Shown: piece by piece, positions 4,246 through 62,165 of the stretch
Numbering within the stretch: position 1 is the first letter of the stretch
Layout: each line of letters starts with the position of its first letter
Virus record (IMG/VR): IMGVR_UViG_3300028886_000075
From: a virus
Lineage: Duplodnaviria; Heunggongvirae; Uroviricota; Caudoviricetes
DNA: 64,000 nt
Direction: 5' to 3' (one strand)
Translations under genes and position numbers: made by a program
The notes under the pieces: generated by a model
The model's database searches: none
What the model saw: the letters and a program-made list of their open reading frames with translations, nothing else
Told to the model about the DNA's origin: nothing

Positions 4246-4917
4246 ATGAAAAATCTAAAAGACATCATTTCAGAAAAACTTATAATTAATAAGAATAGTA
4301 AAGTTAAAAAAAATGTTAAGACAACAAATGAACTTAAACAACTTATTAATAAACTTATTGAAGAACGTGGTATAAATGCAGATCTTAATGATATAGACAC
4401 TTCTGAAATAACAGATATGTCATATTTATTTTCTGATTCTAAATTTAATGGAGATATATCTGAATGGAATGTAAGTAATGTAAAAAATATGACATGTATG
4501 TTTAATAATTCTAAATTTAATGGAGATATATCTGAATGGGATGTTAGTAATGTTACTAGAATGAACGGCATGTTTATGCGTAGTAATTTTAATAATAATA
4601 TATCTTATTGGGATGTTAGTAATGTTAAACATATGAGTTTTATGTTTGCTAAAAATAAAAAATTTAATGGAGATATATCTGAATGGGATGTAAGTAATGT
4701 TGAAGACATGGAATGTATGTTTGAATATTCAATTTTTAATGGAGATATATCTAAATGGGATGTAAGTAATGTTACTAATATGAAAGAAATGTTTTATCAT
4801 TCAAAATTTAATGATATAAATGGTGATATCTCTAAATGGAATATTCGTAATGGTGTAAATATGGAACGTATGTTTAAAGGATCACCTATAGAAAATAATC
4901 AACCAAATTTTTATTAA
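4246..4917 (+). CDS. BspA-family (DUF285-type) repeat protein, CTS-like N-terminus
   Basis: Seven repeats of FNGDISEWDVSNVxxMxxMF. Confidence 0.75.
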   Translation: MKNLKDIISEKLIINKNSKVKKNVKTTNELKQLINKLIEERGINADLNDIDTSEITDMSYLFSDSKFNGDISEWNVSNVKNMTCMFNNSKFNGDISEWDVSNVTRMNGMFMRSNFNNNISYWDVSNVKHMSFMFAKNKKFNGDISEWDVSNVEDMECMFEYSIFNGDISKWDVSNVTNMKEMFYHSKFNDINGDISKWNIRNGVNMERMFKGSPIENNQPNFY

Positions 4918-16700: not shown

Positions 16701-19700
16701 AATACATTCTTCACATCTTATATGAGTGATCATGATGAAAATAACATAAGTTTTGATGCTAGAATTCCTCAATCACAAGGTTTAGATATATATCGTTGGG
16801 AACAAGATTTCGAAGTTATATATCCTGACCCAGATGATTTAGCTGGTAAAGTTGAAAAAGGAACAGATAAATGGGGTACAAATTCTAAATTTAAGAGAAC
16901 AACAGATCCATTTGTTAATTGGTTTAAATGGTTAGTAAGTACTTATAATAATCATGAAAAATTCCGTACTGAAGCACCTGCACATTTAGATTTATATAAG
17001 ATGGCAGCATATTATATAACAATGCTTCGTCTTGGTCTTGTTGACTCTGGTGAACGTAACGTTCAAATTAAGACATATGATGGTGTTCACTTCCATTATG
17101 AACCTTGGGATATGGATATTGCGTTAGGTAATAAGAACACTGGTGGTATTGCATATGATCCTCCAATTAATCGTAATACTAAATTAGGTGCAGAAGAATG
17201 GGCTATATCTGGTAAATCTACAGTAACATCTAACTGGTTATGGGATGCATTAGAAGCGTGGCCATTATTTATGAATACAATTGTTCCTACAACTGCGGAA
17301 GCATTATCAAAGGCAGGATTCAATTATAATTCATTAACAAAAATGTTTGATGAAGAATATTCTGGTAGATGGTGTGAAATAATATATAATGAATCTGGTC
17401 ACTATAAATATATTGAAAATGGTGGTAGTGAACGTCAATACCTTGATTGGTTACAAGGTTCTCGTATTAATCACAGACACTGGTGGTTATCTACATCAAT
17501 GGACTATTATGATGCAAGATGGACTTGTGGAGATTTCAAATCTCACTTTATATATATTGCTGCAGGTCACACACAAACAACTGCAGGTACAGATATTATT
17601 ACAGTAACTCCATCTAATCCAACATTCTTAACATTAACACAAAATGATGGTGAAGTAAATACAGATATTGAAGTTAGTCAAGAAGGTGATTCAACGGGAG
17701 ATAATACTGAACAAGTAGTTGTTGCTAAAGAATGTTCTAGAACAAATCCTGCAACATTTGATATTTCAACTTTATCATTCTCAAATAAAGTACCTACAAA
17801 GATTTTGGGTGCAACTTATATTGAAACATTAGATATAGCTTGTCTTGCTAATCGTATCGACCTTTTGGATATTAAAGGTGCATATTCTGAAGTAAATGGC
17901 GCTTCTATTAAAACAATTAATGTTGGTAATACTATAACAAAAGATCCTGATTATAATGATAATTATCACTATATCGGTGGTGTTAATACAACATATAATT
18001 TACGTTTACAAGTAAGCCCACAAAATGATAACCTTGAAAACTTAAATACACTTAATATTAGAGGTCAATTAGGTAAACGTGGTTCTAACCCATCAGTTAA
18101 CCCTAACTCATTATTCCGTGGTGGTAATGAAAAGACTGGTCGTCCACAGATTAAGAACTTATATGCTATGGGTGCTCATTTTAACTATTTCCAAAGTTCT
18201 AAATCTGGTAATGATTTTGAAAATCTTGAATTACCTGCAATAAACTATGATGGTGTTAAAGATGCATATGAAAATCTTTTACCACTTTCTACTATGGGTA
18301 GTATTGAAATGCATAACAGTTCTTGGCAAAACATATCATTCTGGAATGGTGTAGTTGACCCTGTAACTAATAAGATTAAATATGAAAGATATAATATTAA
18401 TGGTAATTATGATTATTATGTACCTACATCTATATCATCAATAACATTTACAGGTAGTACAGCAAACTCTGCAAAAGCTAAAGATTTTATATTTAATTGG
18501 ATTAATGGTATTATTTATGAAACAACATTAGCACATGAAGGAGAAACTGAAGAACAAATACAAGCCGCTGTCGATGCTGCACTTGCAGAAAAAACATTAA
18601 TACTTAAGGATGTTAATTGGCAGAAAGAAACATGTGGTAATGATTTTGCTTTATCATATGATGACTTAATATTATTATCTAAACTTAATAATGGTGAAAA
18701 TAATAATGGTGGTACAACATATAAAGGTTATGTTATATTAACTGGTGGTGCAAAACTCACTCCAATTGAATTAACAAGATTACAAATATTATTTGGTGAA
18801 TCTGCATTTGAACGTACTGGTTCTGGTTTAATTATTGACCAAGAAAATGAAGATGTTCAAATTAATCTTGCTGGAGATGCATACATTGGAGATAATGGAG
18901 AATTCTATTTAAGAGAAGTACCAACTAATGCAACCAATAAAGGTAAAGGTGGTATTGCTGTACTTAATGCTACTAAGTTCAGATTACAAGAAATAACCAA
19001 TACTGATTATAACTGGTATGTTAAATCAGAATTTGGTTCTGATGATCCAACAAGTTCATATAAATCATGTAGAATATCTGTAGGACAAGATGGTAGAACA
19101 TATTTGACAGCATCTGAAAGTCAATATGGAAATTATCGTGTTAATGTAGGTGTTACTATTGGGCAAGAACAAAAATGGATAGTAATTAATATTATTGGAA
19201 CAACATATCCTGATAGTTTTGAAATTAATGCTAATCCAATTAATGGTCAATATCTTTATAATGTAGATGAAGGTTATATCTTTGGTAGTGGTTCTTCATC
19301 ATCTGAATTCTATATCACACCTAATAAAGAATATGATGGTACTATATATGATGTAGTTTGGACATTAAAACGTGATGCCGATAATGTAACTCTTATTAAT
19401 AAAGAATCATATAAGATTTATGAGCAAACTCGTTCATTAGAAGAAGTTATGTTAGCAGAAGCTGATTCTTATTTAAAGAAATGCTATAATGTTAATGGTA
19501 CTGTATCTAATCCATTAGATTCACCTTATGGAATAATGTTAAAGGCAATTAATTCACCTGTTACATCAGATATGTATTACTATACATTAATTGTAGATAT
19601 TATTTATGTATCTGGTAAAACAATTTCTACATCAAAGAAAATTATCATAATGGATGATCAACAACCAATTATGACAAATGGTACATTGTTATATCAATTA

Positions 19701-20318
19701 ATTAATACATTCTATAAAGCTAATCATATTACTACAGAATATCCTGAAGGTAAATCATTAGAACCAAGAGTATATAGATATCAATTATTAGATGTTGGTG
19801 ATACAATTGATTTTACAACTTCATTTATAAATCAATCAACTGGTCAAGAAACTCAGATACAACATATGATAACGGATTATTCTAATGAAACAATATTAAA
19901 GTATTTGATTAATGTTAAAAATGTTATATTTGATGGTCTTTCATTAACTAATATATATACTAATTCATCTTCAAATACAGAGATTAATCAATTCGATTTT
20001 AGTTATATGGTTAATCTTGAAACTGTTTCAATAGTAAATTGTGATCAATTAACTGCGAATATTGATTTATCTAATAACAATAAATTAGTTTCTGTAGATG
20101 CAAGAGGAACTACAATTAATATTATTGTACCTGAAAATTGTACAACATTAACTACATATAAACTAGGTACGCCAACAAGTGTAACATTACATGGATGTAC
20201 TGGGTTAGTTCCTGCTAATGTATCGACTGATGATTCAGATAATATTAATTATATTGATATTGTTAATTGTGGTAACAATCAATCATTCTCAATATTTGGA
20301 AATGTAATGGGAGTATAA
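13752..20318 (+). CDS. giant virion-associated protein (2188 aa) with C-terminal leucine-rich-repeat-like repeats
   Basis: Uninterrupted 6.5-kb ORF inside the structural module. The C-terminus carries LRR-like repeats (LSLTNIYTN..LETVSIVNCDQLTANIDLSNNNKLVSV). A central region is rich in His/Trp/Asp motifs (HFHYEPWDMD, HRHWWLS). Confidence 0.6.
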   Translation: MAKKQETYNGNITEFIDWVNGVDSITGRNKTNNLQVSGGAIRKLIQNHLKNPITMIEDKENGLYRIFSSEAAYKAWESDPDTYSNLELFNFVRPSDYTIETNLNIDNRYLISGLHDQSITKLVYDWVVQNDKGTFEDNIVATYTITTAAGAVTKFSQNYDTSSKHVELDVYDYLDVGQTSVRIDLRAVSTGATRNYTIYITQLILELESDFPYYSEHTPGVAITYSWNLKRNNADNASSLYVYVDGIEVNKQDIQLGSANVSGTVTILTDNLAGSFIPPLNDVTSDGRVSHVLQMCVKTKYNNFDFTSNILYYTFEIKSSDSGIKNYFINNFFNFSAGTKIFPISFEGLYLSATQYMPVSMNWAYYTDMLASENTVQINWKLYENDEGTDLATMEASKGYKPDPLEFIPATYSKEVEFSPATATIKLVGEYTSQDGQTRKLCSIPMYIAKSALNMVETSGYDYKLSAYGRSNASQTKSIWNGEKAVSNLDNITTKFTNIKWDDNSGWFEHSFRTSGDNSYCEISYNPFKGNPSAGRTIEVEFESEKISDPSDILITIGVPYDPADPEHTRGPRIEIGANKATLYDKAGNDCIHTNYKANERVKIAFIINPENNTSDSGLIYIVSDGVLERGAMAAGHDFTTQNGKIIIGKSASGVKFYNFRTYLRNIGYSDEYNNFIYDNDEKLKLINNNAVVDSSTQQIDYQLCCRKLDTILISGNLSQILKGETGKEESEIDVTIERFCPFDTTKNFKVEGCRIRKHGQSTLNYPITSMKFWLNKSVNPEKTPKFTCEGQAYLGLNKNRYKMKDNSVPSNKFILQANYADSSGVHNGSILRAINDSWFNADINGEFKLRTEPQLFSTNQTATLNDGTVMGKNSEGQNWDDCTKNPSTGQTYTFPYQIRNAPDSFPCVVFYKDTEGTNKTTFLGQYVFMEDKKSDFTFGERSIYKADPKDPFCMYTENKDYDTDDNKIWDNDNVLRIEVLNINTFFTSYMSDHDENNISFDARIPQSQGLDIYRWEQDFEVIYPDPDDLAGKVEKGTDKWGTNSKFKRTTDPFVNWFKWLVSTYNNHEKFRTEAPAHLDLYKMAAYYITMLRLGLVDSGERNVQIKTYDGVHFHYEPWDMDIALGNKNTGGIAYDPPINRNTKLGAEEWAISGKSTVTSNWLWDALEAWPLFMNTIVPTTAEALSKAGFNYNSLTKMFDEEYSGRWCEIIYNESGHYKYIENGGSERQYLDWLQGSRINHRHWWLSTSMDYYDARWTCGDFKSHFIYIAAGHTQTTAGTDIITVTPSNPTFLTLTQNDGEVNTDIEVSQEGDSTGDNTEQVVVAKECSRTNPATFDISTLSFSNKVPTKILGATYIETLDIACLANRIDLLDIKGAYSEVNGASIKTINVGNTITKDPDYNDNYHYIGGVNTTYNLRLQVSPQNDNLENLNTLNIRGQLGKRGSNPSVNPNSLFRGGNEKTGRPQIKNLYAMGAHFNYFQSSKSGNDFENLELPAINYDGVKDAYENLLPLSTMGSIEMHNSSWQNISFWNGVVDPVTNKIKYERYNINGNYDYYVPTSISSITFTGSTANSAKAKDFIFNWINGIIYETTLAHEGETEEQIQAAVDAALAEKTLILKDVNWQKETCGNDFALSYDDLILLSKLNNGENNNGGTTYKGYVILTGGAKLTPIELTRLQILFGESAFERTGSGLIIDQENEDVQINLAGDAYIGDNGEFYLREVPTNATNKGKGGIAVLNATKFRLQEITNTDYNWYVKSEFGSDDPTSSYKSCRISVGQDGRTYLTASESQYGNYRVNVGVTIGQEQKWIVINIIGTTYPDSFEINANPINGQYLYNVDEGYIFGSGSSSSEFYITPNKEYDGTIYDVVWTLKRDADNVTLINKESYKIYEQTRSLEEVMLAEADSYLKKCYNVNGTVSNPLDSPYGIMLKAINSPVTSDMYYYTLIVDIIYVSGKTISTSKKIIIMDDQQPIMTNGTLLYQLINTFYKANHITTEYPEGKSLEPRVYRYQLLDVGDTIDFTTSFINQSTGQETQIQHMITDYSNETILKYLINVKNVIFDGLSLTNIYTNSSSNTEINQFDFSYMVNLETVSIVNCDQLTANIDLSNNNKLVSVDARGTTINIIVPENCTTLTTYKLGTPTSVTLHGCTGLVPANVSTDDSDNINYIDIVNCGNNQSFSIFGNVMGV

Positions 20319-32155: not shown

Positions 32156-32166
32156 AATCATAATAT

Positions 32167-32240
32167 TCATCTTCTAAGCTTATCACAATTTAAGTTAATA
32201 TAATTATATTAAAAAATTGTTTGATAAGCTTAGAAGATGA
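32167..32240. repeat. perfect 19-bp inverted repeat (tcatcttctaagcttatca ... tgataagcttagaagatga) separated by a 36-nt AT-rich loop, between convergent genes
   Basis: Read directly from the sequence. Confidence 0.8.
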
Positions 32241-32290
32241 ATAACCGCTATCTATGAATGAATTTTACTATATATTTCATAAAAAATATT

Positions 32291-37477: not shown

Positions 37478-37730
37478 TTATGTATTCCATGATATAAGAT
37501 TTATATAAAAAATAGTAAATATAAATGAAACTTTTAAAAAAATGTAAAAATTTTTAATTTAAATAAAATATATATTAAAATATTAATATTATTGAAATAT
37601 TTTTAAAATATACTATATTAGATTATCATTAATAAAATCAAACAAATATGAATATATTTATATAAAATTTTTATTTTTATAAAATCTATTTAGTATAATA
37701 AGAATTAATTCAATTTAACATTTATATAAT

Positions 37731-38894
37731 ATGAAAAGTCTTAGTCAAAAAAAGTCTGAAAATAAAAATTTTAAAGTTCAATCAAACAGTATTAATTTTA
37801 TAGATGCTGAAGATTTAAAGAAGTATCTTAAAGTTGCAAATAATTTTATCGGAGAAGATACAAAGGAACTTATTGATTGGTTGATTGTTAATAATAAAAC
37901 ATATATCAGCGATCTTTCAACTGATGACGATGAAAATGCATTAGCAGGATTTTATAAAGCAGGTGAACCTTCAAAAGGTGATTTAAAAGCGCTTTATAAA
38001 TTACTCAAAGATATTATTAAAAGTAATCGTATAATGGAAATTCCTGTTTTTCAAACTAAAGAACAGTTTGAGAATATTATTAATAAGAAAGTCCCAGCTG
38101 ATACAATTATACTAGATCTTAATTCTGAAAGCGGTCGTGCTGCAGTTGCAAAGAAATACGAACCATTAGTACATAAAATTTGTCATCAATGGGTAGGTAA
38201 GATCAATCTTCCTTATGATGATCTTCTTGGATTTGCATATGAGGGTCTTACATATGCAATGAATAACTATGGTAAAAAGAATAAGAAATCTACTGCAACT
38301 GATGAAGCAGTATTATCATATACATTTGGACAGTTTGCTGCATATTGTATTCTTAATCAAATTAAGGGTAATGGAGTTTATGCATCACATCTTGTTAGAA
38401 TTTCACCATCTCAACAAAAGAAAGAACGTCAAGAAAAGGGACATAATACAAAGAACTTCTCTTTATCTGGTGATAAAGTAGTTGGACATAATGATGAAGG
38501 TTCTAAAACATTATTTGACTTTATTGGTTCTGCTGAAAATTCATCTAATGATTTAGATAAGCAAGATCTTGAAAAATTACTTTCTGAAGCATATAAGATT
38601 TTGGAAAAGAACTTTAGTGATAAGACTATGGAAATTTGGTATAGTTTCTATGGAGTAAATGGTCATAAACAACTTTCTAATAAAGAACTTGCCGCTAAAT
38701 ATAATGTAGCTGGTTCAAATATTAGTTATTATTGTTATAAAGTAAATGCATTTATTCTTAAGAACAAAGAAATTCTTGATAAATTTAAAGAAATTAAAGA
38801 ACTTATGAATGAATGTCTTAATGATATTGACCGTGATAGTGATATGCGTGGTACAATGGTAACTAATACTGAAAATATAGATAATGAAGAATAA
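37731..38894 (+). CDS. sigma-70-family RNA polymerase sigma factor (phage-encoded)
   Basis: Region-2-like AAVAKKYEPLVHKICHQWVGKINLPYDDLLGFAYEGLTYAMNNYG and a region-4-like C-terminal HTH (NKELAAKYNVAGSNISYYCYKVNAFILKNK). Confidence 0.6.
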   Translation: MKSLSQKKSENKNFKVQSNSINFIDAEDLKKYLKVANNFIGEDTKELIDWLIVNNKTYISDLSTDDDENALAGFYKAGEPSKGDLKALYKLLKDIIKSNRIMEIPVFQTKEQFENIINKKVPADTIILDLNSESGRAAVAKKYEPLVHKICHQWVGKINLPYDDLLGFAYEGLTYAMNNYGKKNKKSTATDEAVLSYTFGQFAAYCILNQIKGNGVYASHLVRISPSQQKKERQEKGHNTKNFSLSGDKVVGHNDEGSKTLFDFIGSAENSSNDLDKQDLEKLLSEAYKILEKNFSDKTMEIWYSFYGVNGHKQLSNKELAAKYNVAGSNISYYCYKVNAFILKNKEILDKFKEIKELMNECLNDIDRDSDMRGTMVTNTENIDNEE

Positions 38895-45857: not shown

Positions 45858-47234
45858 ATGAACGTTAAAATTGTTCAAGATAATAGTAGAACTGAACGTA
45901 ATGTTTCAGATGATGTAGTAGAAATACTTTATCAAGAAACTAAAAACTATGAAACACACGATAATTCTAAATTAATTGGTAGTATTGAAATCAATCGTGG
46001 GTATTCTGATGCAGTAGAATTTTTAAATAGAAATTATTCAAATTTAACAATATCTACTAAATTTGAATCATATATAAGATTTGAAGATCCTATTGTTGAA
46101 CAATTAATATTAGATAGATTTTCAACATTAGATACTCCAGTTGGTGATGGCATAGGTATAACACAATCTGATTTAAATAGTATTAATCAAGGTTGGTTTT
46201 GGGATACTTTTCAAAATACTGAAATAACTAAATTTAATGAATTTAAATTATGTATAAATTATAAAAATTTATCAAGTGCAAGTTTTAAAAATTGTACAAA
46301 ATTAGAAGAAATTAATTTAACTAATATTGAAATCATATCTGTAGCTTCATGTTTACAAAATACCAAAATAAAAGAAGCATATTTACCAAATTTAACAAAA
46401 ATAACTGCGGGTAATATTTTTTATAATTGTACAGAATTGGAATCGTTTAATGCTCCTTTATTAGAACAAATAACTGGTGCTTCACATTTTTATAATTGTA
46501 CTTCATTAAAAACAATAAACATACCTATATTTAATGGTAGAATAAGTGAGTCTATGTTTAGAAATTGTTCTTCATTAGAAACATTAAATATAGGAAATAT
46601 TACTGAAATAGTTGGGAGTTATGCTTTTCTTGGGTGTAAAGAATTGTCTTCAATAGATTTATCTGAATGTACAAAAATACAAAGCGATTCTGTATTTAAT
46701 GGTTGTTCTTCTTTAACTAATTTAGGAGATACATCAAATATTACTTATTTTAATGGAACTTGGACATTTTTTAATTGTTCAAATTTAACTGGTACTTTAG
46801 ATTTATCTAATATTAGTAATGATTTTAATTTAACTGGTACATTTAATAATTGTTCAAATTTAACAAAAATAAAATTAGGTGTTACAAATACTATAGGTAG
46901 TAGATGGCATGGTTTTGACAATGATAGAAAAGCATTTTACGGATGTACTAATTTAGTTACAATAGATATTAAACAATTAAACCATACAGCTCTTGAGTAT
47001 AAAAGTGCATTTGGTAATAATCCTGCATTAAGAAATTTTATAATACGTAATACTGAAAATATACCTGCATTTGATAATGAACAAACAACAGTAAATATAA
47101 ATTGTTTTGGTGGATCAAATGTTAAAGTATATGTTGATGATAATTTATTAGAAACATATAAAACTACAGAAGGCTGGGAAGATATGATAGATTATTTATA
47201 TCCTATTAGTGAATATGTTCCTATAGAAGATTAA
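45858..47234 (+). CDS. BspA-type leucine-rich repeat (LRR_5-like) protein
   Basis: Repeats of the form F..C..L..I.L.N.T.I....F..C..L. Confidence 0.65.
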   Translation: MNVKIVQDNSRTERNVSDDVVEILYQETKNYETHDNSKLIGSIEINRGYSDAVEFLNRNYSNLTISTKFESYIRFEDPIVEQLILDRFSTLDTPVGDGIGITQSDLNSINQGWFWDTFQNTEITKFNEFKLCINYKNLSSASFKNCTKLEEINLTNIEIISVASCLQNTKIKEAYLPNLTKITAGNIFYNCTELESFNAPLLEQITGASHFYNCTSLKTINIPIFNGRISESMFRNCSSLETLNIGNITEIVGSYAFLGCKELSSIDLSECTKIQSDSVFNGCSSLTNLGDTSNITYFNGTWTFFNCSNLTGTLDLSNISNDFNLTGTFNNCSNLTKIKLGVTNTIGSRWHGFDNDRKAFYGCTNLVTIDIKQLNHTALEYKSAFGNNPALRNFIIRNTENIPAFDNEQTTVNINCFGGSNVKVYVDDNLLETYKTTEGWEDMIDYLYPISEYVPIED

Positions 47235-48843: not shown

Positions 48844-51147
48844 ATGAATCATATTAATATACAAAATGAATCAACAAATATCACTGAATATATAGATTCA
48901 AATATTTTAGAAAAAATTTATAATTTATTTTCTGGTGAGGTTACACCAACAGAATTAGATCATATTATATTAGATAATACATCTATATTAAAAGGAAATA
49001 TAACAGTACCATCAGTATATAAATTTATATATGATTGGTTATTAGAAAGATATCCAAATACATTAAGAATTAATTATAATGATTTGTATATTTATATTAA
49101 AGATCCATATATAGAAGCAAAATTATTAGAAAACAATTTTGGTGATAGCACTAATTCACATGTAACATATTCTAAAGTATTTGCTGCAACAACATTACCG
49201 GTTTTTGGTATTACTGGTTCATATAGTGAATATGAAGAAAACATTACTGAATTTAAAGAATTGGCAGAATTCACTAATATTAAAAAACTCTCAGATAGAA
49301 TATTTAGACAATGTAGAAATTTAGAAACAGTTGATTTAATAAATGTTACAGAATTAGGAAATGCTGCATTTTATAGATCAGGTATAAAACATTGTTTAAA
49401 TTCGGGTAATGTTGAAATTATTGGGGAGCAGTGTATTGAAGATTGTACTAATTTAGAAACATTTGATTTTTCTTCAGTAAAAAAAATTGGAACACATAGT
49501 ATATATAATACAGGATTAACTGCAATACATTTTAATGGTTCTGAAGATATAATTTTAATGAACCAGGCAATCAATAATAATAAAAGTTTAACAGTTATAG
49601 ATGGATTACAAAATGTTAAGCAATTTACTGCCGGTAATATATTTTCGAATAACACTGCGTTGTTAGAATTAAGATTAGATAATTTGGAATTATGTGACGG
49701 AAATAATTTCGTTAACAATTGCACTTCATTACATACATTTTATGCACCTAAATTAGCGACAAAAATAGAATACGGGACATTTGGTGGTTGTAAAGCATTA
49801 AAAAATTTAACTATTGACTGGGAAAATATAACTACTATTAAAGGAAATGCATTTAATTCCTGTACATCATTAACATCAGATAAAGTTGATATATCTCATG
49901 TTACAGAATTTACAGGAAATGGACATTTTACTGAGTGTAGTAGTTTAACTTCATTAACGGTAAATCAAAATATAATTAATATTCCTGAATATTTTTGTTA
50001 CAGATGTACTAATTTATCAACAATTAATTTAACAAACTGTACTACTATTGGTAATTATGCTTTTATTGGTACATCATTAGTTAATGTTGACATAAGTGCA
50101 TGCTCATCTTTAGGAGCTGGTGTATTTGCTGAAGTGAATACATTGACTAGTGTTAAGTTATGTCCAAATTTGAAAACATTAAATACTGGAGTATTTAAGA
50201 GCTGTATTAATCTTTCTAACATCAACACTAATTTTGCAGTAATTACATCAATTGGTAGTTCTGCATTTGAAGGTTGTAAATCATTGACAACATTTGATGT
50301 TTCATCAGTTATGTCATTAGGTGATTGGTCATTTGCTTACTGTGACAATCTAACAACGTTAAATCTTTCTTCAGTAATAACAAACATACCTAATCAATGT
50401 TTTAGAACCAACCCTAAACTAACATCTGTTGGTGATTTGTCAAGTGTTAAAATAATAGAAAAACAGGCATTTTTAGATTGTCCTTTGTTAACTGGTCCAT
50501 TAGATTTAAGTAATTGTGAAACTATAAATGGAAGTGCATTCAAAGGATGTTCAGCATTGACAGAAGTAATATTGACTACAAAATGTACTTTAATAAAAGG
50601 TGAAGCATTTAGAGGATGTACGAATCTAGAATCAGTTGGGGATTTGTCTAACGTTACAATGTTAGGAACCCATTTTGCTAATGATATGCATACATTTAGT
50701 GGGTGTTCATCATTAGTTTCTGTCAACTTATCGAATAAATGTACATTATTATGTGGTAATACATTTAGAAACTGTACGTCATTAACATCTGTTGGTGATA
50801 TATCAGGTCTTATTGATATATATGTAGCGACATTCTACAATTGCTCATCATTGACTCAGAATTTTGATCTATCTAATATAACTGGAATAATTGGTGAAGC
50901 TGCATTCCAAGGATGTTCATCATTGACATCTATACTTGTTGGTGCTAATGTACAGAAAATTGATCAAAATGCATTTAAGGATTGCCCATTATTGACCGTC
51001 AAGTTCTTAGGAATTACACCACCATCAGATTTTGCAATCAATGCGTTCAATTCACAGATTTATAATATATTAGTTCCTAATGATTCATTGAATTCATATA
51101 AAGTAAAAATACCTGAAAGCTTACATTCAAAAATAGAAACATACTAA
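48844..51147 (+). CDS. large BspA-type leucine-rich repeat (LRR_5-like) protein (767 aa)
   Basis: About 20 repeats of CT(S/N)L..V.L....IG..AF.GC..L type. Confidence 0.7.
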   Translation: MNHINIQNESTNITEYIDSNILEKIYNLFSGEVTPTELDHIILDNTSILKGNITVPSVYKFIYDWLLERYPNTLRINYNDLYIYIKDPYIEAKLLENNFGDSTNSHVTYSKVFAATTLPVFGITGSYSEYEENITEFKELAEFTNIKKLSDRIFRQCRNLETVDLINVTELGNAAFYRSGIKHCLNSGNVEIIGEQCIEDCTNLETFDFSSVKKIGTHSIYNTGLTAIHFNGSEDIILMNQAINNNKSLTVIDGLQNVKQFTAGNIFSNNTALLELRLDNLELCDGNNFVNNCTSLHTFYAPKLATKIEYGTFGGCKALKNLTIDWENITTIKGNAFNSCTSLTSDKVDISHVTEFTGNGHFTECSSLTSLTVNQNIINIPEYFCYRCTNLSTINLTNCTTIGNYAFIGTSLVNVDISACSSLGAGVFAEVNTLTSVKLCPNLKTLNTGVFKSCINLSNINTNFAVITSIGSSAFEGCKSLTTFDVSSVMSLGDWSFAYCDNLTTLNLSSVITNIPNQCFRTNPKLTSVGDLSSVKIIEKQAFLDCPLLTGPLDLSNCETINGSAFKGCSALTEVILTTKCTLIKGEAFRGCTNLESVGDLSNVTMLGTHFANDMHTFSGCSSLVSVNLSNKCTLLCGNTFRNCTSLTSVGDISGLIDIYVATFYNCSSLTQNFDLSNITGIIGEAAFQGCSSLTSILVGANVQKIDQNAFKDCPLLTVKFLGITPPSDFAINAFNSQIYNILVPNDSLNSYKVKIPESLHSKIETY

Positions 51148-51176: not shown

Positions 51177-51229
51177 AAATACCTAACTATTTTATATTTA
51201 GAATTAAATTATAGAATAGTTAGGTATTT
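51177..51229 (+). terminator. 15-bp stem hairpin (aaatacctaactatt ... aatagttaggtattt) then TTTTTT, ending 4 nt before the 51233 ATG
   Basis: Read directly from the sequence. Confidence 0.65.
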
Positions 51230-57192: not shown

Positions 57193-57420
57193 GTGTTAAA
57201 TATGATTAAAAGATCATTTAAAGATGTAATACGTTCTATTAAAGCAACTGGTGCAATTTATGAATATACTTCAAAAGACGGTATAACACATTATTCAAAT
57301 ACTCCTTTTACTGAAGAAGAAAAAAAGAAATATGATAATACTACAAAAAATAATTTAGATATCATAGTTAATCATTTACGAAAAGAAATTAATAAACGAA
57401 TTAATAAAAGATATCTATAA
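57193..57420 (+). CDS. hypothetical small protein
   Basis: 75-aa ORF. Confidence 0.45.
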   Translation: MLNMIKRSFKDVIRSIKATGAIYEYTSKDGITHYSNTPFTEEEKKKYDNTTKNNLDIIVNHLRKEINKRINKRYL

Positions 57421-57470
57421 AAAATAAATATTGTAAAAATTTTTTTAGATATTTTATAAAAAAATTAAAG

Positions 57471-57505
57471 TTGTTCTATATTATTGAATATATAGAACAA
57501 TTTTG
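57471..57505 (+). terminator. rho-independent terminator (ttgttctatata-tattgaa-tatatagaacaa then TTTTG)
   Basis: Read directly from the sequence. Confidence 0.65.
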
Positions 57506-57540
57506 TTATATCCCACAAAAATATAATAATGGGATAATAA

Positions 57541-58758
57541 GTGAGTAAACAGTTTAATTTAAGTAAGTCTTCGTTAAACGAAATAGAATTATTTTTTGAT
57601 AAGATAGATTCTTTTATTGATGATTATGAATTTTATGATACATTTAAAGAAATTGTATATAAAGATTCTAAAATGATAAAAGATTGTTCGGAAAAATGTA
57701 TTGTAAGTTTTTATATAGAGTCTTGTAAAGATATATTAGAAAAATCTAATTATGAAATATATGAATCTTTTTATAATGATTTAAAATATAAAACAAGATT
57801 AAAACTTGTTGATAAGTTTGTACCAAAAGTTTTATATGATAATAATATTGATATATATTTTAATGAAGTAAAAAGAGAATATATTATGCATCCTATGGGT
57901 GAATCTGAAGATATGGCGTTTGTACCAGAAAATAAAGAAGTTTTTATTAAGAATAATTTAAAACTTGTAATTGATTGTGCAAAACGTTATCAAAATTTAG
58001 GTATTCCATTGGAAGATTTAATACAAGCAGGCAATGAAGGATTATTAATAGCTTTTAATAAATTTGATGGTGAAAGATCAAATTTAAGAAATAATATCAT
58101 AAACGATATAAAGAAATCAGATTTATATTTTTTTAATAAATATGATGCAATAGATATTATTAAAAAAAATTTTCAATATACAAAAACTTTAGAATCAACA
58201 TTAAGTAAATTACCCGAAGAAGGATTTGAATGTAAAGATGATTTTATTGATTGGGCACAAGAAAACATTAAAAAAGCATCGTTTTCATCTATAGGTTTTG
58301 CGTGGATTAAGGCATTTATATTATCTGAAATTAATAAACTTGGAAAGATAATAAGAGTTCCTAAGTCTGCTCAAAAGAAAGGTGTATCTACAGTTAATGT
58401 TTTACGTTTAGATTCAATTAATCCACACACTGATGATTCATATCACGATAATCAAATTTCTTCAGTCGCAAATGAAGAATTTGCTATTGAAGATGAAACA
58501 ATGGAAAATATGGAACGTCAGAATTTATTCAAAGAAATAATTGAACGAATGCTTTGTAATGTTTCTGCATTAGATAGAAGAATAATAAAAAAGAAATTTG
58601 GAATTGATAAACCATTTCCAATGTCAATAAATGAAATAGCAGAAAATGAAGGTTTATCTGCAAATAAAGTTAAGTATAGTATAAGTAATACATTAAAGAT
58701 AATTGAAAAAAATTGTACACCAAATGAACGTAAAACAATAATATCACTTTTGAAGTAA
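57541..58758 (+). CDS. sigma-70-family RNA polymerase sigma factor (second phage-encoded copy; GTG start)
   Basis: Region 2: NKEVFIKNNLKLVIDCAKRYQNLGIPLEDLIQAGNEGLLIAFNKFDGER. Region-4-like HTH: MSINEIAENEGLSANKVKYSISNTLKII. Confidence 0.65.
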   Translation: MSKQFNLSKSSLNEIELFFDKIDSFIDDYEFYDTFKEIVYKDSKMIKDCSEKCIVSFYIESCKDILEKSNYEIYESFYNDLKYKTRLKLVDKFVPKVLYDNNIDIYFNEVKREYIMHPMGESEDMAFVPENKEVFIKNNLKLVIDCAKRYQNLGIPLEDLIQAGNEGLLIAFNKFDGERSNLRNNIINDIKKSDLYFFNKYDAIDIIKKNFQYTKTLESTLSKLPEEGFECKDDFIDWAQENIKKASFSSIGFAWIKAFILSEINKLGKIIRVPKSAQKKGVSTVNVLRLDSINPHTDDSYHDNQISSVANEEFAIEDETMENMERQNLFKEIIERMLCNVSALDRRIIKKKFGIDKPFPMSINEIAENEGLSANKVKYSISNTLKIIEKNCTPNERKTIISLLK

Positions 58759-59282
58759 TGAAAACATTTAAAGATTTAAAAATAGGAGATCATATATATT
58801 ATGTTATTGAACGTAATAAATCACAGCAAAATAATTTTATGTGTCAATTAGGTGATCCCATTATTGATTTTAATTTTATTGCTGAAAATGATTATAAATT
58901 AGAAGATAAATATAAAATATATGATTGTGAAATTATAGATTATATATATCCATCAACATATCAGACACCTGTATATCATATGAAAATGAATGGTAGTAAT
59001 CCTTACGATATAGGATCTTCTTATTGTGAACATATAGATGAACATAACGTTACATTAAAATTAAAAAATTCTTATGGAATAGGATTTATTAAAGTCCCAA
59101 TTGATACTAATGAATATCAAGTATTTACAGGATCATATTATTTTATTAAAAAAGCAGACTCATTAAAATATATTGATAATCTAATTAATAAACGTATAAA
59201 AACCAATATTAATAAAATAAATAAATTAAATAAAGAAATTGAAACATTAAAAGATATACAAAATAAAATTGATATAGAATAA
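58758..59282 (+). CDS. hypothetical protein
   Basis: 174-aa ORF with an ATGA overlap. Confidence 0.5.
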   Translation: MKTFKDLKIGDHIYYVIERNKSQQNNFMCQLGDPIIDFNFIAENDYKLEDKYKIYDCEIIDYIYPSTYQTPVYHMKMNGSNPYDIGSSYCEHIDEHNVTLKLKNSYGIGFIKVPIDTNEYQVFTGSYYFIKKADSLKYIDNLINKRIKTNINKINKLNKEIETLKDIQNKIDIE

Positions 59283-60094: not shown

Positions 60095-60140
60095 ATTCCT
60101 TCATAACTATATTATTTTAAATTAATAGTTATGAAGGAAT
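60095..60140 (+). terminator. 16-bp stem hairpin (attccttcataactat-14nt-atagttatgaaggaat)
   Basis: Read directly from the sequence. There is no clear T-run. Confidence 0.5.
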
Positions 60141-60275
60141 TATGAATATTGGAACATTTAGTATGTTAAATATGATGAGACATAACAATATGATGGAAGA
60201 ACAAAAACGTCGTCATCATAGAATGAGAGAATTAGTTGCTAAACGTAGAAAAGAAAATAATAATGAAGAAGAATG
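60141..60275 (+). CDS. small basic ORF (44 aa), stop overlaps the topoisomerase start (ATGA)
   Basis: Found by manual reading. Confidence 0.3.
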
Positions 60276-62165
60276 ACAAAGAAAATTGAAGAGAAATATC
60301 AGGAATTATCGGAAGTTCAACATATTCTTCAGCGCCCAGGAATGTGGGTAGGTTCAACAAAGTCTGAAGAAAAGGATGCCTTCATTTATAATCATAAGAC
60401 AGGAAAGTTCGAAATGAAAATCGTTAACTATATTCCTGCAATGCTTAAGGTTGTAGATGAGGTCATTTCTAACTCTTGTGATGAGTTCAGACGTAAAGAC
60501 AATATGGGTCTTACTGAACTTTATGTAAAGATTGATAAAGATAATGGAGAAATCATCGTAAGAGATAATGGTGGTATTCCAATTGTTAAGCATAAAGAAG
60601 CAGGAGTATATGTTCCTGAATTTATATTTGGACGTTTAAGAACATCTTCAAACTATGATGATACTGAAGATAGAAATGTAATAGGAACAAATGGTGTAGG
60701 ATCTGCATTGTGTAATGTATTTTCCACATTTTTTGAAATTGAGTCAGCAGATGGTAAAAATGAGTTTCACCGTTCATGGTCTAATAATATGGAGACTTTA
60801 AATGATGATCTTAAAGTTATAAAATGCGGAAAGAAGACTCATTATACACAGACACGTTTCAAATTAGATTTTAGTAGATTTGAAACTGAACTGACAACTT
60901 TTGATAATGACTTTATTAATATAATTCATAAGAGGTGTATTGATGCTGCTGCAGCTAATCCAGGTCTTAAGGTAACATTCAATAGTGGTGGCGAAGATAT
61001 TGAATGGAAATTTAAGAAACTTGATGAATACATTGATCTTTATTCTAATCTTTTGAATATATCTGATAAGATTCCATTTGAAAATGATTTATGTACTGCA
61101 TGGATATTTCCGGATAGTTCTGTTGATGTAGGTTTCGTAAATGGTGCAGAATGTTCAAAAGGTACTCACATGCGAGCTATCCGTCAAGAAATCAATCAGG
61201 CAGTTTGCGATTATCTTATAAAGAAAGATAAGCTTAAGGATTTAACTACACGTGGAGTTGATAATAAGTATTCTGTATTCATTAATATTAATGTATCTAA
61301 TCCTGCATACGATTCGCAAACTAAAGATTGCCTCACAACTCCTATTGATAAGTTTTCAAAAGATGAGAAACTAAAATGGGAAGTAAATGAAAAGTTCTTA
61401 AATAAGATCATTAAGTCTGAAATTGTTGCATTAGTAAGAGATTGGTATAAACAGAAATCTGCAGCTGAGGATGAAAAGGCACTTCGTAAAATCAATAGGG
61501 AAACAAATAAAGGATTGAAACGCCCTGATAAATATATAACATGTTCTTCAAAAGTAAGAGCAAATAAACAACTTTGGGTCTTTGAAGGAGACTCTGCAAA
61601 GGCGGGCTTTAGGGGAGGTCGTAATCCAGAATTTCAAGCAGGATTGATTATGCGAGGAGTTCCATTAAATGTATATGGAATGACTCCTGTTCAGATTATG
61701 AAGAATGAAGTATTTAATGATCTTGTTACCGTACTTGGACTTAAGTGGGGTAAAGAATTCAATATTAATGATCTGAACTTTGGTAAAATTGTTATTGCAA
61801 CTGATGCTGACGTTGATGGTGATAAGATTGCTAGTCTACTATTATGTTTCTTCAATAATTGGCCTGAACTATTTGAAAAGAATATAGTTTGTAGAAGCCT
61901 ATCTCCAATTATCATATCAAGAAAAGGAAAGGACTGCCAGAAATTCTATACAATGGATGAATTTAAAGAAGCTGAAAAGAAACTTAAAGGTTATTCTCAT
62001 AAATATGCGAAAGGTCTTGGTGGTCTATCAAATCAAGAATCAAAGGAAATGTATCAAGATCCTAAATTCTTATATTTCAAAAAAGATGAAGCTGCAGATA
62101 GTATGTTCAGAAAGTGGTTCAATAAGGGAGAATCTGAAGAACGTAAAAATATGTTGAAATATTAA
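60273..62165 (+). CDS. gp39: DNA topoisomerase II large subunit (T4 gp39-like, GyrB-type ATPase plus Toprim)
   Basis: N-terminus LSEVQHILQRPGMWVGS (GyrB/gp39 signature). GHKL ATPase motifs (IVRDNGGIPI..., GTNGVGSAL). Toprim motifs LWVFEGDSA and IATDADVDGDKIASLL. Confidence 0.88.
   Translation: MTKKIEEKYQELSEVQHILQRPGMWVGSTKSEEKDAFIYNHKTGKFEMKIVNYIPAMLKVVDEVISNSCDEFRRKDNMGLTELYVKIDKDNGEIIVRDNGGIPIVKHKEAGVYVPEFIFGRLRTSSNYDDTEDRNVIGTNGVGSALCNVFSTFFEIESADGKNEFHRSWSNNMETLNDDLKVIKCGKKTHYTQTRFKLDFSRFETELTTFDNDFINIIHKRCIDAAAANPGLKVTFNSGGEDIEWKFKKLDEYIDLYSNLLNISDKIPFENDLCTAWIFPDSSVDVGFVNGAECSKGTHMRAIRQEINQAVCDYLIKKDKLKDLTTRGVDNKYSVFININVSNPAYDSQTKDCLTTPIDKFSKDEKLKWEVNEKFLNKIIKSEIVALVRDWYKQKSAAEDEKALRKINRETNKGLKRPDKYITCSSKVRANKQLWVFEGDSAKAGFRGGRNPEFQAGLIMRGVPLNVYGMTPVQIMKNEVFNDLVTVLGLKWGKEFNINDLNFGKIVIATDADVDGDKIASLLLCFFNNWPELFEKNIVCRSLSPIIISRKGKDCQKFYTMDEFKEAEKKLKGYSHKYAKGLGGLSNQESKEMYQDPKFLYFKKDEAADSMFRKWFNKGESEERKNMLKY

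Follow-up and report, generated by a model that had tools for sequence, protein, structure and literature searches.

How a giant phage without an RNA polymerase of its own redirects the transcription machinery of its host is the question raised by the gene at 57541..58758 of the DNA analysed here (a stretch of 64 kb, hereafter the window). Sigma factors are the presumed tools by which RNA-polymerase-less giant phages reprogramme the host enzyme and, to our knowledge, no work has dealt with any sigma factor from the megaphage lineages of gut or rumen. The gene probably belongs to an uncultured giant phage of the myovirus type that lacks its own RNA polymerase, and its product is probably an alternative initiation factor of the sigma-70 family. 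Sigma factors are already known in this phage group; what is new here is the insert architecture of the protein and the arrangement of GTG start, hairpins and promoter-like element around its gene.

The window encodes a head protease, a gp23-like capsid protein, sheath and tube proteins, a helicase and a topoisomerase II, and the capsid, sheath and tube genes agree with the T4-type virion background proposed in the original prediction. With its counterparts in LR756500.1, PAU, Tenacibaculum and Lak phages the capsid protein shares 30-36% identity and, judging from its genes, the contig is that of a phage distantly related to the Lak, PAU and Tenacibaculum jumbo phages. Phages of the Lak/PAU/Tenacibaculum type are described as RNA-polymerase-less and sigma-encoding (PMC7824862; PMC13282480), and the 'group 2' jumbo phages without RNA polymerase (Lak, Tenacibaculum PTm1/pT24 and cyanophages) encode RpoD-like sigma factors (Iyer et al. 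2021, PMC7824862). The present phage resembles group 2 in having a gp23-type capsid, in encoding sigma factors and in that no phage RNA polymerase was seen in the window ORFs scanned; by analogy, its sigma factors would also recruit the host polymerase to phage promoters. The scan found no RNA polymerase subunit among about 40 window ORFs, including all those longer than 540 aa and about half of those of at least 90 aa, and the result covers only the window, that is, 64 kb of a genome of probably 400 kb. Sigma genes are to be expected in giant phages lacking their own RNA polymerase, and the genome is very AT-rich (25% G+C).

The gene and the ORF that follows it are as follows:

57541..58758, + strand: phage sigma-70-family gene, 405 aa, GTG start and TAA stop (ORF list, family models, AlphaFold2)
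58758-59282: ORF of 174 aa, overlapping the sigma stop codon by one base

The GTG-start ORF claimed at 57541-58758 is present and encodes 405 aa. An in-frame TAA stands directly 5' of the GTG and the next in-frame ATG lies 44 codons downstream, so that no start other than the GTG preserves the conserved N-terminus. This codon is retained in most orthologues, down to ~42% identity, and it was found in 23 of the 28 protein-retrieved orthologous loci at >=40% identity (~11 of 15 clades). ATG opens 71 of the 78 ORFs of the 64-kb window, and no Shine-Dalgarno use was found at the 78 gene starts checked in it. The sigma gene is among the better-conserved genes of its neighbourhood (~70% identity), only the topoisomerase being much more conserved, and fast evolution or mosaicism of the gene was rejected on this ground. 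The 174-aa ORF gave no family match; it was rejected as a conserved co-factor, since it is 29-32% identical where the sigma protein is 70% identical and is undetectable in more distant loci.

Several models place the protein in the sigma-70 family. Pfam Sigma70_r2 (PF04542) matches it with 25.4 bits (gathering cut-off 24) and TIGR02937 with 58.9 bits (cut-off 42.9) over residues 134-390; its PHROG matches at E<=0.01 are families 351 (sigma factor, 7e-18) and 21612 only. When the PDB was searched with the family profile, RpoS was matched with E=1e-33 and SigA with ~1e-32. The AlphaFold2 model has a pLDDT of 85.9 and its top Foldseek matches are all sigma70/SigA structures (prob 1.0), with the PTm1 sigma factor among the best viral fold matches. 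The 'second, divergent sigma-70-family factor' of the original prediction is thus borne out by Pfam, TIGR02937, PHROG, the PDB profile search and the fold search, and the modelling check suggested for region 2 also favours it (pLDDT >90, with matches to solved sigma factors). All scores are far below the equivalog cut-offs of NCBIfam: 65.4 bits vs 378.7 for RpoS (TIGR02394), 60 vs 354 for RpoD_Cterm, and 33-61 vs 354-779 for the SigA/RpoD models. The protein is not of the group 4 (ECF) type either, having 405 aa, a region 1.2-like helix (YFNEV) and an N-terminal domain, and its best family-model and structure matches are RpoS and SigA rather than ECF factors. On sequence and modelled fold, therefore, the 405-aa product is a sigma-70-family factor, and the conservation of regions 2.1-2.2 and 4 suggests that it binds core RNA polymerase.

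More than 1250 proteins match the family, on contigs of up to 467 kb, and ~100 clusters at 50% identity align in one stretch, insert included. Complete relatives include ONIZ01000001.1 (410 kb), CADBGE010000001.1 (400 kb) and contigs of 435-467 kb. A megablast of 14 kb found no close relatives in deposited phages, and tblastn of deposited phage genomes, whether the query was the protein, a distant family member or just the insert, returned region-2-only matches or identities <=25%. As far as these searches reach, the subfamily is absent from all deposited phage genomes, and in this the present phage is unlike the group 2 jumbo phages. Full-length members were found in GTDB entries named 'uncultured Firmicutes bacterium RUG343', 'Erysipelotrichaceae RUG13941', 'Clostridia RGIG2387' and 'Romboutsia', which could suggest a cellular sigma factor on a bacterial contig. 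This is extremely improbable: the RUG343 contig is a 410,106-bp contig listed as viral in IMG/VR, and the other GTDB representatives do without the family, since of the 35 relatives found there all but seven (L112-L118) are region-2-only or <=27% identical. Moreover, genes for capsid, protease, sheath and tube are present in the window, and the NCBIfam scores lie far under every cellular equivalog cut-off (RpoS 65 vs 379 bits). Identification of the host through the GTDB MAGs carrying the family was abandoned, as these 'MAGs' seem to be phages themselves.

The protein can be divided into the following parts:

57541..57825, + strand: N-terminal four-helix domain, residues 1-95, lineage-specific and mildly acidic (AlphaFold2)
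57826..58074, + strand: region 1.2-like helix (YFNEV, ~102-116) and regions 2.1-2.2 (129-178, predicted to be core-binding) (alignments)
58075..58275, + strand: four-helix insert of 67 residues (179-245) between regions 2.2 and 2.3 (RpoS profile alignment, AlphaFold2)
58276..58494, + strand: regions 2.3-2.4 (246-267), region 3.0 stub (RVPKS) and acidic linker (282-318) (RpoS alignment, pLDDT)
58495..58755, + strand: region 4 (4.1-4.2 helix-turn-helix), residues 319-405 (SigA and RpoS alignments, AlphaFold2)

As in RpoS and SigA/RpoD, a region 1.2-like helix, regions 2.1-2.4 and regions 4.1-4.2 follow each other in the same order, and region 2.2 is nearly canonical (DLIQAGNEGLLIAFNKFD in the phage vs DLIQEGNIGLMKAVDKFE in group 1/2 factors). 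However, the phage protein lacks region 1.1 and has instead a lineage-specific 95-residue N-terminal helical domain. Its helices (9-22, 29-45, 51-68 and 74-93) are modelled with pLDDT 82-97, residues 1-95 have no Pfam or NCBIfam match, and across the family the domain is 47-130 aa long and poorly conserved. In the region 1.2-like helix Y106, F107 and Y114 are nearly invariant across the family. Residues 132-180 align to SigA 155-203, with DLIQ.GN.GL conserved, and family profile positions 118-168 align to RpoS 93-143. The peptide quoted in the original prediction as regions 2.1-2.4 is present (residues 140-177), but it covers regions 2.1-2.2 only; regions 2.3-2.4 (FSSIGFAWIKAFILSEI, residues 248-264) start 67 residues beyond, past the insert.

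This insert, an unusual one, falls in the promoter-melting domain and is delimited by the RpoS alignment: the two matching stretches adjoin in RpoS (143 and 146) and are separated by 67 positions in the family. Its four helices (182-192, 200-210, 214-222 and 232-242) have pLDDT 86-96, and it is 61-73 aa long in all 52 of the 52 aligned members, with Y213 invariant and W238 nearly so. It is missing, by hhalign, from the other sigma protein of the window (37731..38894), and a literature search for inserts between regions 2.2 and 2.3 gave nothing relevant. The phage family differs from RpoS and SigA both in this 61-73-residue insert and in the loss of most of sigma-3 (regions 3.0-3.1). RpoS has ~38 extra residues in two blocks, none of them in the family profile, and AlphaFold2 residues 271-320 (pLDDT 45-64) form no three-helix domain; a linker with a net charge of -7 (282-318) stands in place of sigma-3. 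At the C-terminus, the region-4 helix-turn-helix that had been proposed is upheld: residues 316-382 match region 4 of SigA, the family profile follows RpoS to the end (positions 300-395 on RpoS 242-335), and the helices 319-337, 343-353, 363-370 and 374-391 have pLDDT 89-96. The Pfam region 4 models (Sigma70_r4) gave no match to the protein at E<=1, and region 4 was assigned from the profile alignments.

Within the DNA-facing parts, W255, F248 and S250 show little or no variation, and a recognition helix of the ARVSQI type is retained family-wide. W255 is the equivalent of sigma70 W434; on the other hand, and unlike RpoS and SigA, the protein has I/V in place of Y430 and A/M in place of W433 (E. 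coli sigma70 numbering), the equivalents of Q437 and T440 are also replaced, and the region 4.2 recognition helix is changed. Since these recognition residues (Y430, W433, Q437, T440 and the region 4.2 helix) are altered, a different promoter specificity can be proposed: the factor would bind the host core enzyme via its near-canonical regions 2.1-2.2 and region 4, and would direct it to phage promoters with -10 and -35 elements other than those that the host primary sigma factor recognises. It would do so with an N-terminal helical domain, region 1.2, a region 2 split by the insert, an acidic linker in the absence of sigma-3, and region 4. The same residues could be taken to mean that the protein is a non-initiating decoy, which occupies the host core or sequesters a host factor and so shuts off host transcription: the core-binding region 2.2 is its best-conserved part, the melting residues Y430 and W433 are replaced, and the insert interrupts the loop of the -11A pocket. 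Nevertheless, regions 2.3-2.4 and the 4.2 helix-turn-helix, which a decoy does not need, are conserved family-wide, and alternative sigma factors commonly lack the Y430/W433 equivalents; this possibility is very unlikely.

Phage factors that replace the host sigma, with more than one factor per genome, are found in SPO1 (gp28 and gp33/34) and T4 (gp55), and the phage sigma factors described here would be analogous to them. SPO1 gp28 and gp33/34 and T4 gp55 are small, highly reduced proteins; gp55 amounts to little more than a region-2-like part, and gp34 acts together with gp33. In contrast to gp55, gp28 and gp34, the 405-aa protein has both region 2 and region 4 in full, and it exceeds RpoS in size. 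In primary sigma factors the loop between regions 2.2 and 2.3 forms part of the pocket for the flipped -11 base (-11A). A bolder proposal, which we regard as unlikely, is that the split of region 2 by the insert and the loss of sigma-3 define a new sigma class, that the insert sets -10 recognition, and that translation times the transcriptional switch. If this were true, the insert would assume a sigma-3-like or DNA-contacting role, giving a new type of -10 recognition; the GTG and the leader hairpin would set the amount of sigma factor, so that translation, and not transcription, would time the switch of the phage; and the hairpin at the start codon would hold the sole Shine-Dalgarno-like sequence of an otherwise Shine-Dalgarno-free genome.

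Three elements lie directly upstream of the gene:

57452..57482, + strand: bipartite promoter-like motif, TTTTATA (57452-57458), 17 nt, CTATATT (57476-57482) (motif recurrence)
57470..57507, + strand: hairpin 1, 11-12-bp stem, 8-nt loop, TTTTGTT tail (fold, orthologues)
57509..57536, + strand: hairpin 2, TATCCCA/TGGGATA, 14-nt loop with AAATATAAT box (fold, covariation)

K-mer enrichment alone is too blurred by the 25% G+C to define promoters, and promoter-like motifs were defined by visual reading of intergenic regions together with position statistics. The motif aTT(G/T)AA-N17/18-CTAT(A/T)TT (class A) stands upstream of 12 other window genes, and TTGAAT-N17/18-CTAT(A/T/G)T is kept 5' of sigma orthologues down to ~42% protein identity. 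This recurrence suggests that the class-A motif acts as a promoter of the sigma gene, which would then be transcribed from its own conserved bipartite element. The factor probably does not read this promoter itself, because the -35-like TTGAAT is constant across clades with differing region 4.2 helices.

Hairpin 1 sits 50 nt past the stop of ORF 57193-57420. Its A/T-rich stem pairs 57470/1-57481 with 57490-57500/1, the 5' arm including the -10-like box. The 101 nt containing both hairpins fold with -22.7 kcal/mol vs a shuffle mean of -10.5 (z = -4.84), and none of 200 shuffles was as stable. In orthologues the stem is retained, with G.U pairs that fit the + strand and longer T-tracts (CTTTTTTTT, CTTTTTTG; T6-T8), and it is absent in the L004/L008/L023/L006 clades, where only the -10-like box remains. 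The upstream terminator originally placed at 57471-57505 is accordingly real as a stem-loop with a T-tail, but a consensus terminator scan makes no call there, because the stem has fewer than 3 G-C pairs; stem, T-tract and orthologues together allow hairpin 1 to be described as terminator-like. The possibility of its stem being a repeated regulatory site was discarded, since the window has 61 matches to TTGTTCTAT, against 54 expected, and thus no enrichment. As hairpin 1 overlaps the -10-like box, it could stop transcripts arriving from upstream, and it could not form in transcripts from the gene's own promoter. These would have a leader of ~50 nt, with the conserved hairpin 2 just 5' of the conserved GTG.

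The 7-bp stem hairpin predicted at 57509-57536, next to the start, was confirmed by sequence and fold: TATCCCA (57509-57515) pairs with TGGGATA (57530-57536), ending 4 nt 5' of the GTG. TATCCC-N-GGGATA occurs once in the window vs 0.04 expected by chance, and the fold of the sigma start (-40..+5) is the third most stable of 78 gene starts. In 14 distinct orthologous sequences 92.9% of the cells are paired, with compensatory changes in 2 of the 7 pairs; none of 500 shuffles reaches the observed pairing, and controls slid along the sequence are 33-64% paired. Within the close clade there is modest covariation (2 pairs, 6 cells), and more distant clades form other, unrelated stems at this place, the arms by clade being ATCCCA, ATCTC, GCATATC, GCATAA, CCCCT and CCTCT. 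By comparison of these sequences, a start-proximal hairpin is conserved with compensatory changes and with stems that differ between clades. An Rfam search gave no family at gathering score in the window and one chance-level match within the leader.

The AUU start of E. coli infC and leader hairpins that sequester the Shine-Dalgarno sequence are known forms of translational control of regulatory genes. The sigma gene resembles infC-type control in that a rare start codon is conserved in its orthologues, with a stem-loop directly before it. In most clades the stem has a purine-rich 3' arm (GGGA, GGAG, AGGGG, AGAGG) 4-11 nt 5' of the start and a CU-rich 5' arm, as in a Shine-Dalgarno/anti-Shine-Dalgarno pair; two clades have non-purine arms. 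The purine arm is nevertheless doubtful as a ribosome-binding site because the rest of the genome makes no use of Shine-Dalgarno sequences, and simple sequestering (GGGAT as the ribosome-binding site) was rejected on the 78 gene starts; sequestering is kept as a sub-hypothesis since the 3' arms are purine-rich in most clades. From their sequence, hairpin 2 and the GTG together would make translation low or conditional.

It is also conceivable, though doubtful, that hairpin 2 is a DNA-level element, namely an operator whose palindrome would bind a dimeric regulator and flanks a second, T4-late-like promoter box (AAATATAT/TATAAATA) in the 'loop'. Clades with different arms share the loop box, and the loops of L013 and L016 read TATAAATA, the T4 late-promoter consensus; the same AAATATA box lies 11-30 nt 5' of other starts in the window (12 of the 31 occurrences that fall within +-120 nt), and palindromic half-sites changing together would mimic covariation. 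However, a transcript from the loop box would be near leaderless and, with a GUG start, a poor substrate for translation, whereas the upstream class-A motif puts hairpin 2 within the predicted leader in nearly all clades. One U.G pair in hairpin 2 of L006/L098 fits RNA on the + strand only, being an A.C mismatch on the other strand, and arms that are wholly different between clades are easier to reconcile with a structure than with a protein-binding site. A hairpin formed in the leader RNA is the more probable reading. In the literature on such phages no description was found of the insert, of the sigma-3 loss or of the conserved GTG/hairpin arrangement.

The other sigma gene of the window bears on the place of this factor in the infection programme:

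37731..38894, + strand: other sigma-70-family gene, 387 aa, without the insert (PHROG 351, hhalign)

Both proteins match PHROG 351, this second one with 6.6e-13; its TIGR02937 score (23.7 bits) is below the cut-off and its family profile matches SigA with E=2e-4. The two proteins had been considered unrelated in sequence, and BLASTP between them is marginal (E=0.01), but hhalign of the two families (99.2% probability, E=2.2e-19, 213 colinear columns from region 2.1 to 4.2) makes them distant homologues. A temporal cascade such as that of SPO1 gp28 and then gp33/34, in which an early factor activates the promoter class of the next one, had also been proposed. Two divergent families conserved together in a phage lineage would suit it: they co-occur on the same 438-kb and 376-kb contigs and are ~4.5 kb apart in distant relatives. 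The window has at least two or three classes of start-proximal motif: class A precedes non-structural genes, TATATAAC / T-run+TATA boxes precede head and tail genes, and the AAATATA box, 11-30 nt before starts, is a further class. At least three such classes would favour a cascade, and so would the T-run+TATAAAAT box that the other sigma gene carries, like that before the capsid gene. Nevertheless, a class-A box also lies at 37613, 5' of that gene, and the same motif before both sigma genes is hard to square with a simple scheme in which one turns on the other. A T4 gp55-type minimal sigma and gp33 have been reported for the late genes of the related phage group (PMC7824862); if so, the late class may be the province of neither of the two factors. 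With the same motif before both genes and the families travelling together, the SPO1-like cascade obtains no computed support and is rather unlikely, while some temporal programme is plausible given the several motif classes.

In genomes of >=400 kb the sigma family counts as a core gene. If the readings of architecture and dosage fail, the protein would be one more phage sigma factor. Otherwise, a region 2 split by an insert and a missing sigma-3 would widen the known range of working sigma architectures, and they offer a concrete target for structures with the host polymerase. Conservation of the weak start and of the leader hairpin suggests, in turn, that the dosage of this factor is under selection.

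The open reading frame at 57541-58758 (+ strand, GTG start) encodes a protein of 405 residues that passes Pfam Sigma70_r2 (25.4 bits against a cut-off of 24) and NCBIfam TIGR02937 (58.9 bits against 42.9, residues 134-390), and that matches PHROG 351, 'RNA polymerase sigma factor' (7e-18). Its scores fall far short of every equivalog cut-off for cellular sigma factors, RpoS for example at 65 bits against 379. A profile of the family alignment A2 (52 members, taken from two database searches) matched RpoS (7f0r_F) with E=1e-33, and SigA and RpoD with 1e-32 to 1e-27. When the AlphaFold2 model was compared with the PDB by Foldseek, only sigma factors were retrieved (probability 1.0), with the low global TM-scores expected of a multi-domain protein modelled free; matches among viral models included the sigma factor of Tenacibaculum phage PTm1. 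The GTG directly follows an in-frame TAA, and the first in-frame ATG 3' of it lies 44 codons away; since relatives conserve these 44 N-terminal residues, the GTG at 57541 is taken as the true start. Judged from its sequence, the product belongs to the sigma-70 superfamily and would work like its members, as the original prediction of a sigma-70-family factor with a GTG start and upstream hairpins had it.

The A2 profile was aligned to RpoS in two stretches, positions 118-168 with RpoS 93-143 (regions 2.1-2.2) and positions 236-395 with RpoS 146-335 (region 2.3 through the end). These stretches are contiguous in RpoS, yet 67 positions apart in the phage family, and therefore an insert lies exactly between regions 2.2 and 2.3. 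Its borders are KFD..R at the end of region 2.2 and FS..A..W at the start of region 2.3; its length is 61-73 residues in 52/52 aligned members, Y213 being invariant and W238 nearly so. The peptide that had been quoted as a clear region 2.1-2.4 covers 2.1-2.2 only, since 2.3 lies beyond the insert. Past region 3.0, RpoS is longer than the profile by ~38 residues, which form two blocks, and domain sigma-3 is therefore mostly missing in the phage family. The expected region 4 at the C-terminus was recovered both in the alignment to the RpoS end and in the AlphaFold2 model (pLDDT 85.9), whose parts are as follows.

Domain build of the sigma factor in the AlphaFold2 model
Residues 9-93: N-terminal four-helix domain
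Residues 102-116: region 1.2-like helix, motif YFNEV
After the region 1.2-like helix: regions 2.1-2.2
Residues 182-242: insert, four confidently predicted helices (pLDDT 86-96)
Residues 248-267: long 2.3-2.4 helix
Residues 282-318: acidic linker, net charge -7, low confidence
C-terminus: region 4, four helices

In the numbering of E. coli sigma70, the equivalents of W434 and F427 are kept as W255 and F248, and those of Y430, W433, Q437 and T440 are replaced. The insert is located in the loop that in primary sigma factors contributes to the -11A pocket.

The second sigma gene of the window (37731-38894, 387 aa) encodes a product that matches PHROG 351 (6.6e-13) and scores under the TIGR02937 cut-off; its family profile (alignment A4) reached SigA with E=2e-4 only. 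The two sigma factors had been described as unrelated in sequence, and BLASTP between them is marginal (E=0.01). Profile-profile comparison of the two families (99.2% probability, E=2.2e-19) identifies them as distant homologues, colinear from region 2.1 to 4.2 with the insert as the sole large gap. Large contigs of 438,703 bp and 376,291 bp each carry both families, and in distant relatives (30-35% identity; loci L025, L032-L035 and L038-L039, ~9500-10350) the homologue of the second sigma lies ~4.5 kb 3' of the first, the spacing in the window being ~19 kb. This co-occurrence and proximity indicate that the two-sigma set is old and conserved in the lineage. A temporal cascade of the two factors of the SPO1 type, as originally proposed, is possible but unsupported.

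The genes below describe the surroundings of both sigma genes.

Other genes of the window
Virion genes: head maturation protease, gp23-type capsid protein, tail sheath, tail tube
DnaB-like helicase gene
60273-62165: topoisomerase II large subunit gene, directly 3' of the sigma gene
MazG gene and RNA ligase gene
13752-20318; 8405-10498; 4246-4917; 45858-47234; 48844-51147: coordinates given jointly for a 2188-aa ORF without Pfam match and an SPFH/Band-7 domain protein (structural block), and for one DUF285 and two BspA-type leucine-rich-repeat proteins (outside it)

The gp23-type capsid, sheath and tube genes agree with the T4-type virion background that had been assumed. The window has a G+C content of 23-25% and no tRNA genes, and no RNA polymerase subunit was found among ~40 ORFs scanned, a set that included all ORFs >540 aa and about half of those >=90 aa. 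The capsid protein shares 36% identity with its counterpart in the uncultured phage LR756500.1 (462 kb) and 30-33% with the capsid proteins of Sphingomonas phage PAU, Tenacibaculum phages pT24/PTm1 and the Prevotella Lak megaphages; these relatives are 'group 2.2' of Iyer et al. (PMC7824862). The contigs that carry relatives of the sigma gene reach 467 kb, the gene order around it being conserved, and no member of the subfamily was found in any deposited phage genome.

Shine-Dalgarno sequences were found at 0/78 gene starts of the window, whose leaders are A/T-rich, which suggests a host without Shine-Dalgarno pairing. Taken with the relatives of the phage, this favours a Bacteroidota-like host. 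Against this, related contigs are filed in GTDB as 'Firmicutes/Erysipelotrichaceae' MAGs. The species representatives with the phage sigma family (L113, ONIZ01000001.1, 410 kb; L115, CADBGE010000001.1, 400 kb; L112, L114 and L116-L117) are labelled Firmicutes, Erysipelotrichaceae, Clostridia or Romboutsia. However, at least one of them is identical with a 410,106-bp contig listed as viral in IMG/VR, and these MAGs seem to be megaphage genomes filed as bacteria.

Some further observations concern the neighbourhood. The topoisomerase II large subunit has 97% identity with its counterpart on the related contig L008 (7653-9536), against 71% for the sigma factor and 30-70% for neighbouring genes; this reflects either very uneven conservation along the genome or recent exchange of this segment. 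A 174-aa ORF (58756-59282) without family match shares one base with the sigma stop codon (TAATG), an arrangement that suggests translational coupling; it evolves fast, identity to close relatives being 29-32%. A palindrome at 32164-32243 (41-nt arms, 83% complementary), at the junction of + and - strand gene blocks, may be a bidirectional terminator.

Inspection of all intergenic regions, followed by counting of positions, revealed a bipartite promoter-like motif, here called class A: aTT(G/T)AA, 17-18 nt, (a)CTAT(A/T)TT.

Class-A sites in the window (13)
5516
5985
7576
30241
31164
37515 (-)
37613, before the second sigma gene
47283
47812
51187
57476, before the sigma gene (with 57452)
59328
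60107, before the topoisomerase operon

The -10-like box lies 29-65 nt 5' of the start codon, except at 37613, where the distance is 118 nt. All 13 sites precede non-structural genes and none a virion gene. CTAT[AT]TT has 16/52 matches within 90 nt 5' of a same-strand start, ~3 being expected from the sequence share of such zones. TTGAAT-N17/18-CTAT(A/T/G)T is conserved 5' of sigma orthologues down to ~42% protein identity, and the element at 57452/57476 is the predicted promoter of the sigma gene. Class A does not resemble TTGACA/TATAAT spacing, nor exactly the Bacteroidota TTG/TAnnTTTG type. The -35-like half of the sigma gene's element does not vary among clades that differ in the region 4.2 helix of their sigma, which argues that this element is read by another factor, perhaps the host's. 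The 253-nt divergent intergenic region before the second sigma gene (stretch 37478-38894) carries class-A boxes on both strands, at 37515 (-) and 37613 (+), the latter implying a leader of ~105 nt; it also has a T-run+TATAAAAT box like the one preceding the capsid gene.

The two predicted stem-loops upstream of the sigma gene are both present, and the stretch that holds them folds at -22.7 kcal/mol (mean of shuffles -10.5; z = -4.84; 0/200 shuffles as stable). In hairpin 1, the first of them, an 11-12-bp stem (57470/1-57481 with 57490-57500/1) closes an 8-nt loop and is followed by a TTTTGTT tail; the class-A -10-like box sits within the 5' arm. A transcript from the gene's own promoter, starting a few nt past this box, would be unable to form hairpin 1, whereas one derived from upstream could form it and would then meet the T-tract. 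This arrangement recurs at 51177-51229 and 60095-60140, as long perfect or near-perfect hairpins with the -10-like ACTAT(A/T)TT in the 5' arm and a 3' arm that abuts the next start codon. Orthologues retain the stem, two of its pairs being G.U on this strand, and their T-tracts are stronger; in several orthologue clades the stem is missing and the box alone is kept. A putative insulating terminator overlapping the promoter is a plausible reading; of the terminator first proposed, the stem-loop with its T-tract stands, but a consensus terminator scan did not call it and the stem is not general among clades.

Hairpin 2 pairs TATCCCA (57509-57515) with TGGGATA (57530-57536) around a 14-nt loop, inside the predicted ~50-nt leader, and ends 4 nt 5' of the GTG. 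Across 14 distinct close-clade sequences 92.9% of cells pair, with compensatory changes in 2/7 pairs (C-G to U-A; A-U to U-A or U.G); this covariation was equalled in 0/500 shuffles, and pairing in slid controls is 33-64%. A hairpin also stands at this position in more distant clades, its stems there being unrelated (GCATATC/GATATGC, GCATAA/TTATGC, CCCCT/AGGGG, CCTCT/AGAGG). In most clades the 3' arm is rich in purines and resembles a Shine-Dalgarno sequence. The loop carries a conserved AAATATAT box (TATAAATA in two clades), and AAATATAT also peaks 11-30 nt 5' of other start codons; the box may act as a second, T4-late-like promoter or as a translation signal. AAATATA(T) falls in that interval in 12/31 occurrences within +-120 nt of starts, often inside the preceding gene (sites 4232, 32626(-), 33432(-), 36146(-), 39528, 41488 and 57521).

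The GTG start is found in 23/28 protein-retrieved loci at >=40% identity (~11/15 clades), with ATG in 4 loci and 1 ambiguous; the clade at <=35% identity has mostly ATG starts. In the clade of the related loci L008 and L104, an in-frame ATG 21 nt 5' of the GTG, within the hairpin (tATGCATGGGATT), would add 7 residues, and other clades have stop codons there. In the window, 71/78 mechanical ORFs start with ATG, the seven others mostly having an ATG a few codons on or being doubtful ORFs. The -40..+5 region of the sigma gene folds at -7.0 kcal/mol and ranks third in structure among the 78 gene starts, whose median is -1.45. In this genome, which relies on A/T-rich leaders without structure, a weak start codon and a structured initiation region would hold translation of the sigma low or make it conditional.

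Compared with group 1/2 sigma factors, the phage sigma has no complete sigma-3, its regions 2.2-2.3 are not contiguous and it falls under the curated cut-offs; the presence of region 1.2 and of extra domains sets it apart from ECF factors. The 'group 2.2' phages are described as having no RNA polymerase and encoding sigma factors, minimal or RpoD-like (PMC7824862), and a 2026 review states the same of RNA-polymerase-less jumbo phages (PMC13282480). The sigma factor would belong functionally with the RpoD-like factors of these phages, a class already described. What is new is the conserved insert within region 2, the loss of sigma-3, the N-terminal domain specific to the lineage, the conserved GTG/hairpin leader and the confinement of the subfamily to metagenomic megaphage contigs.
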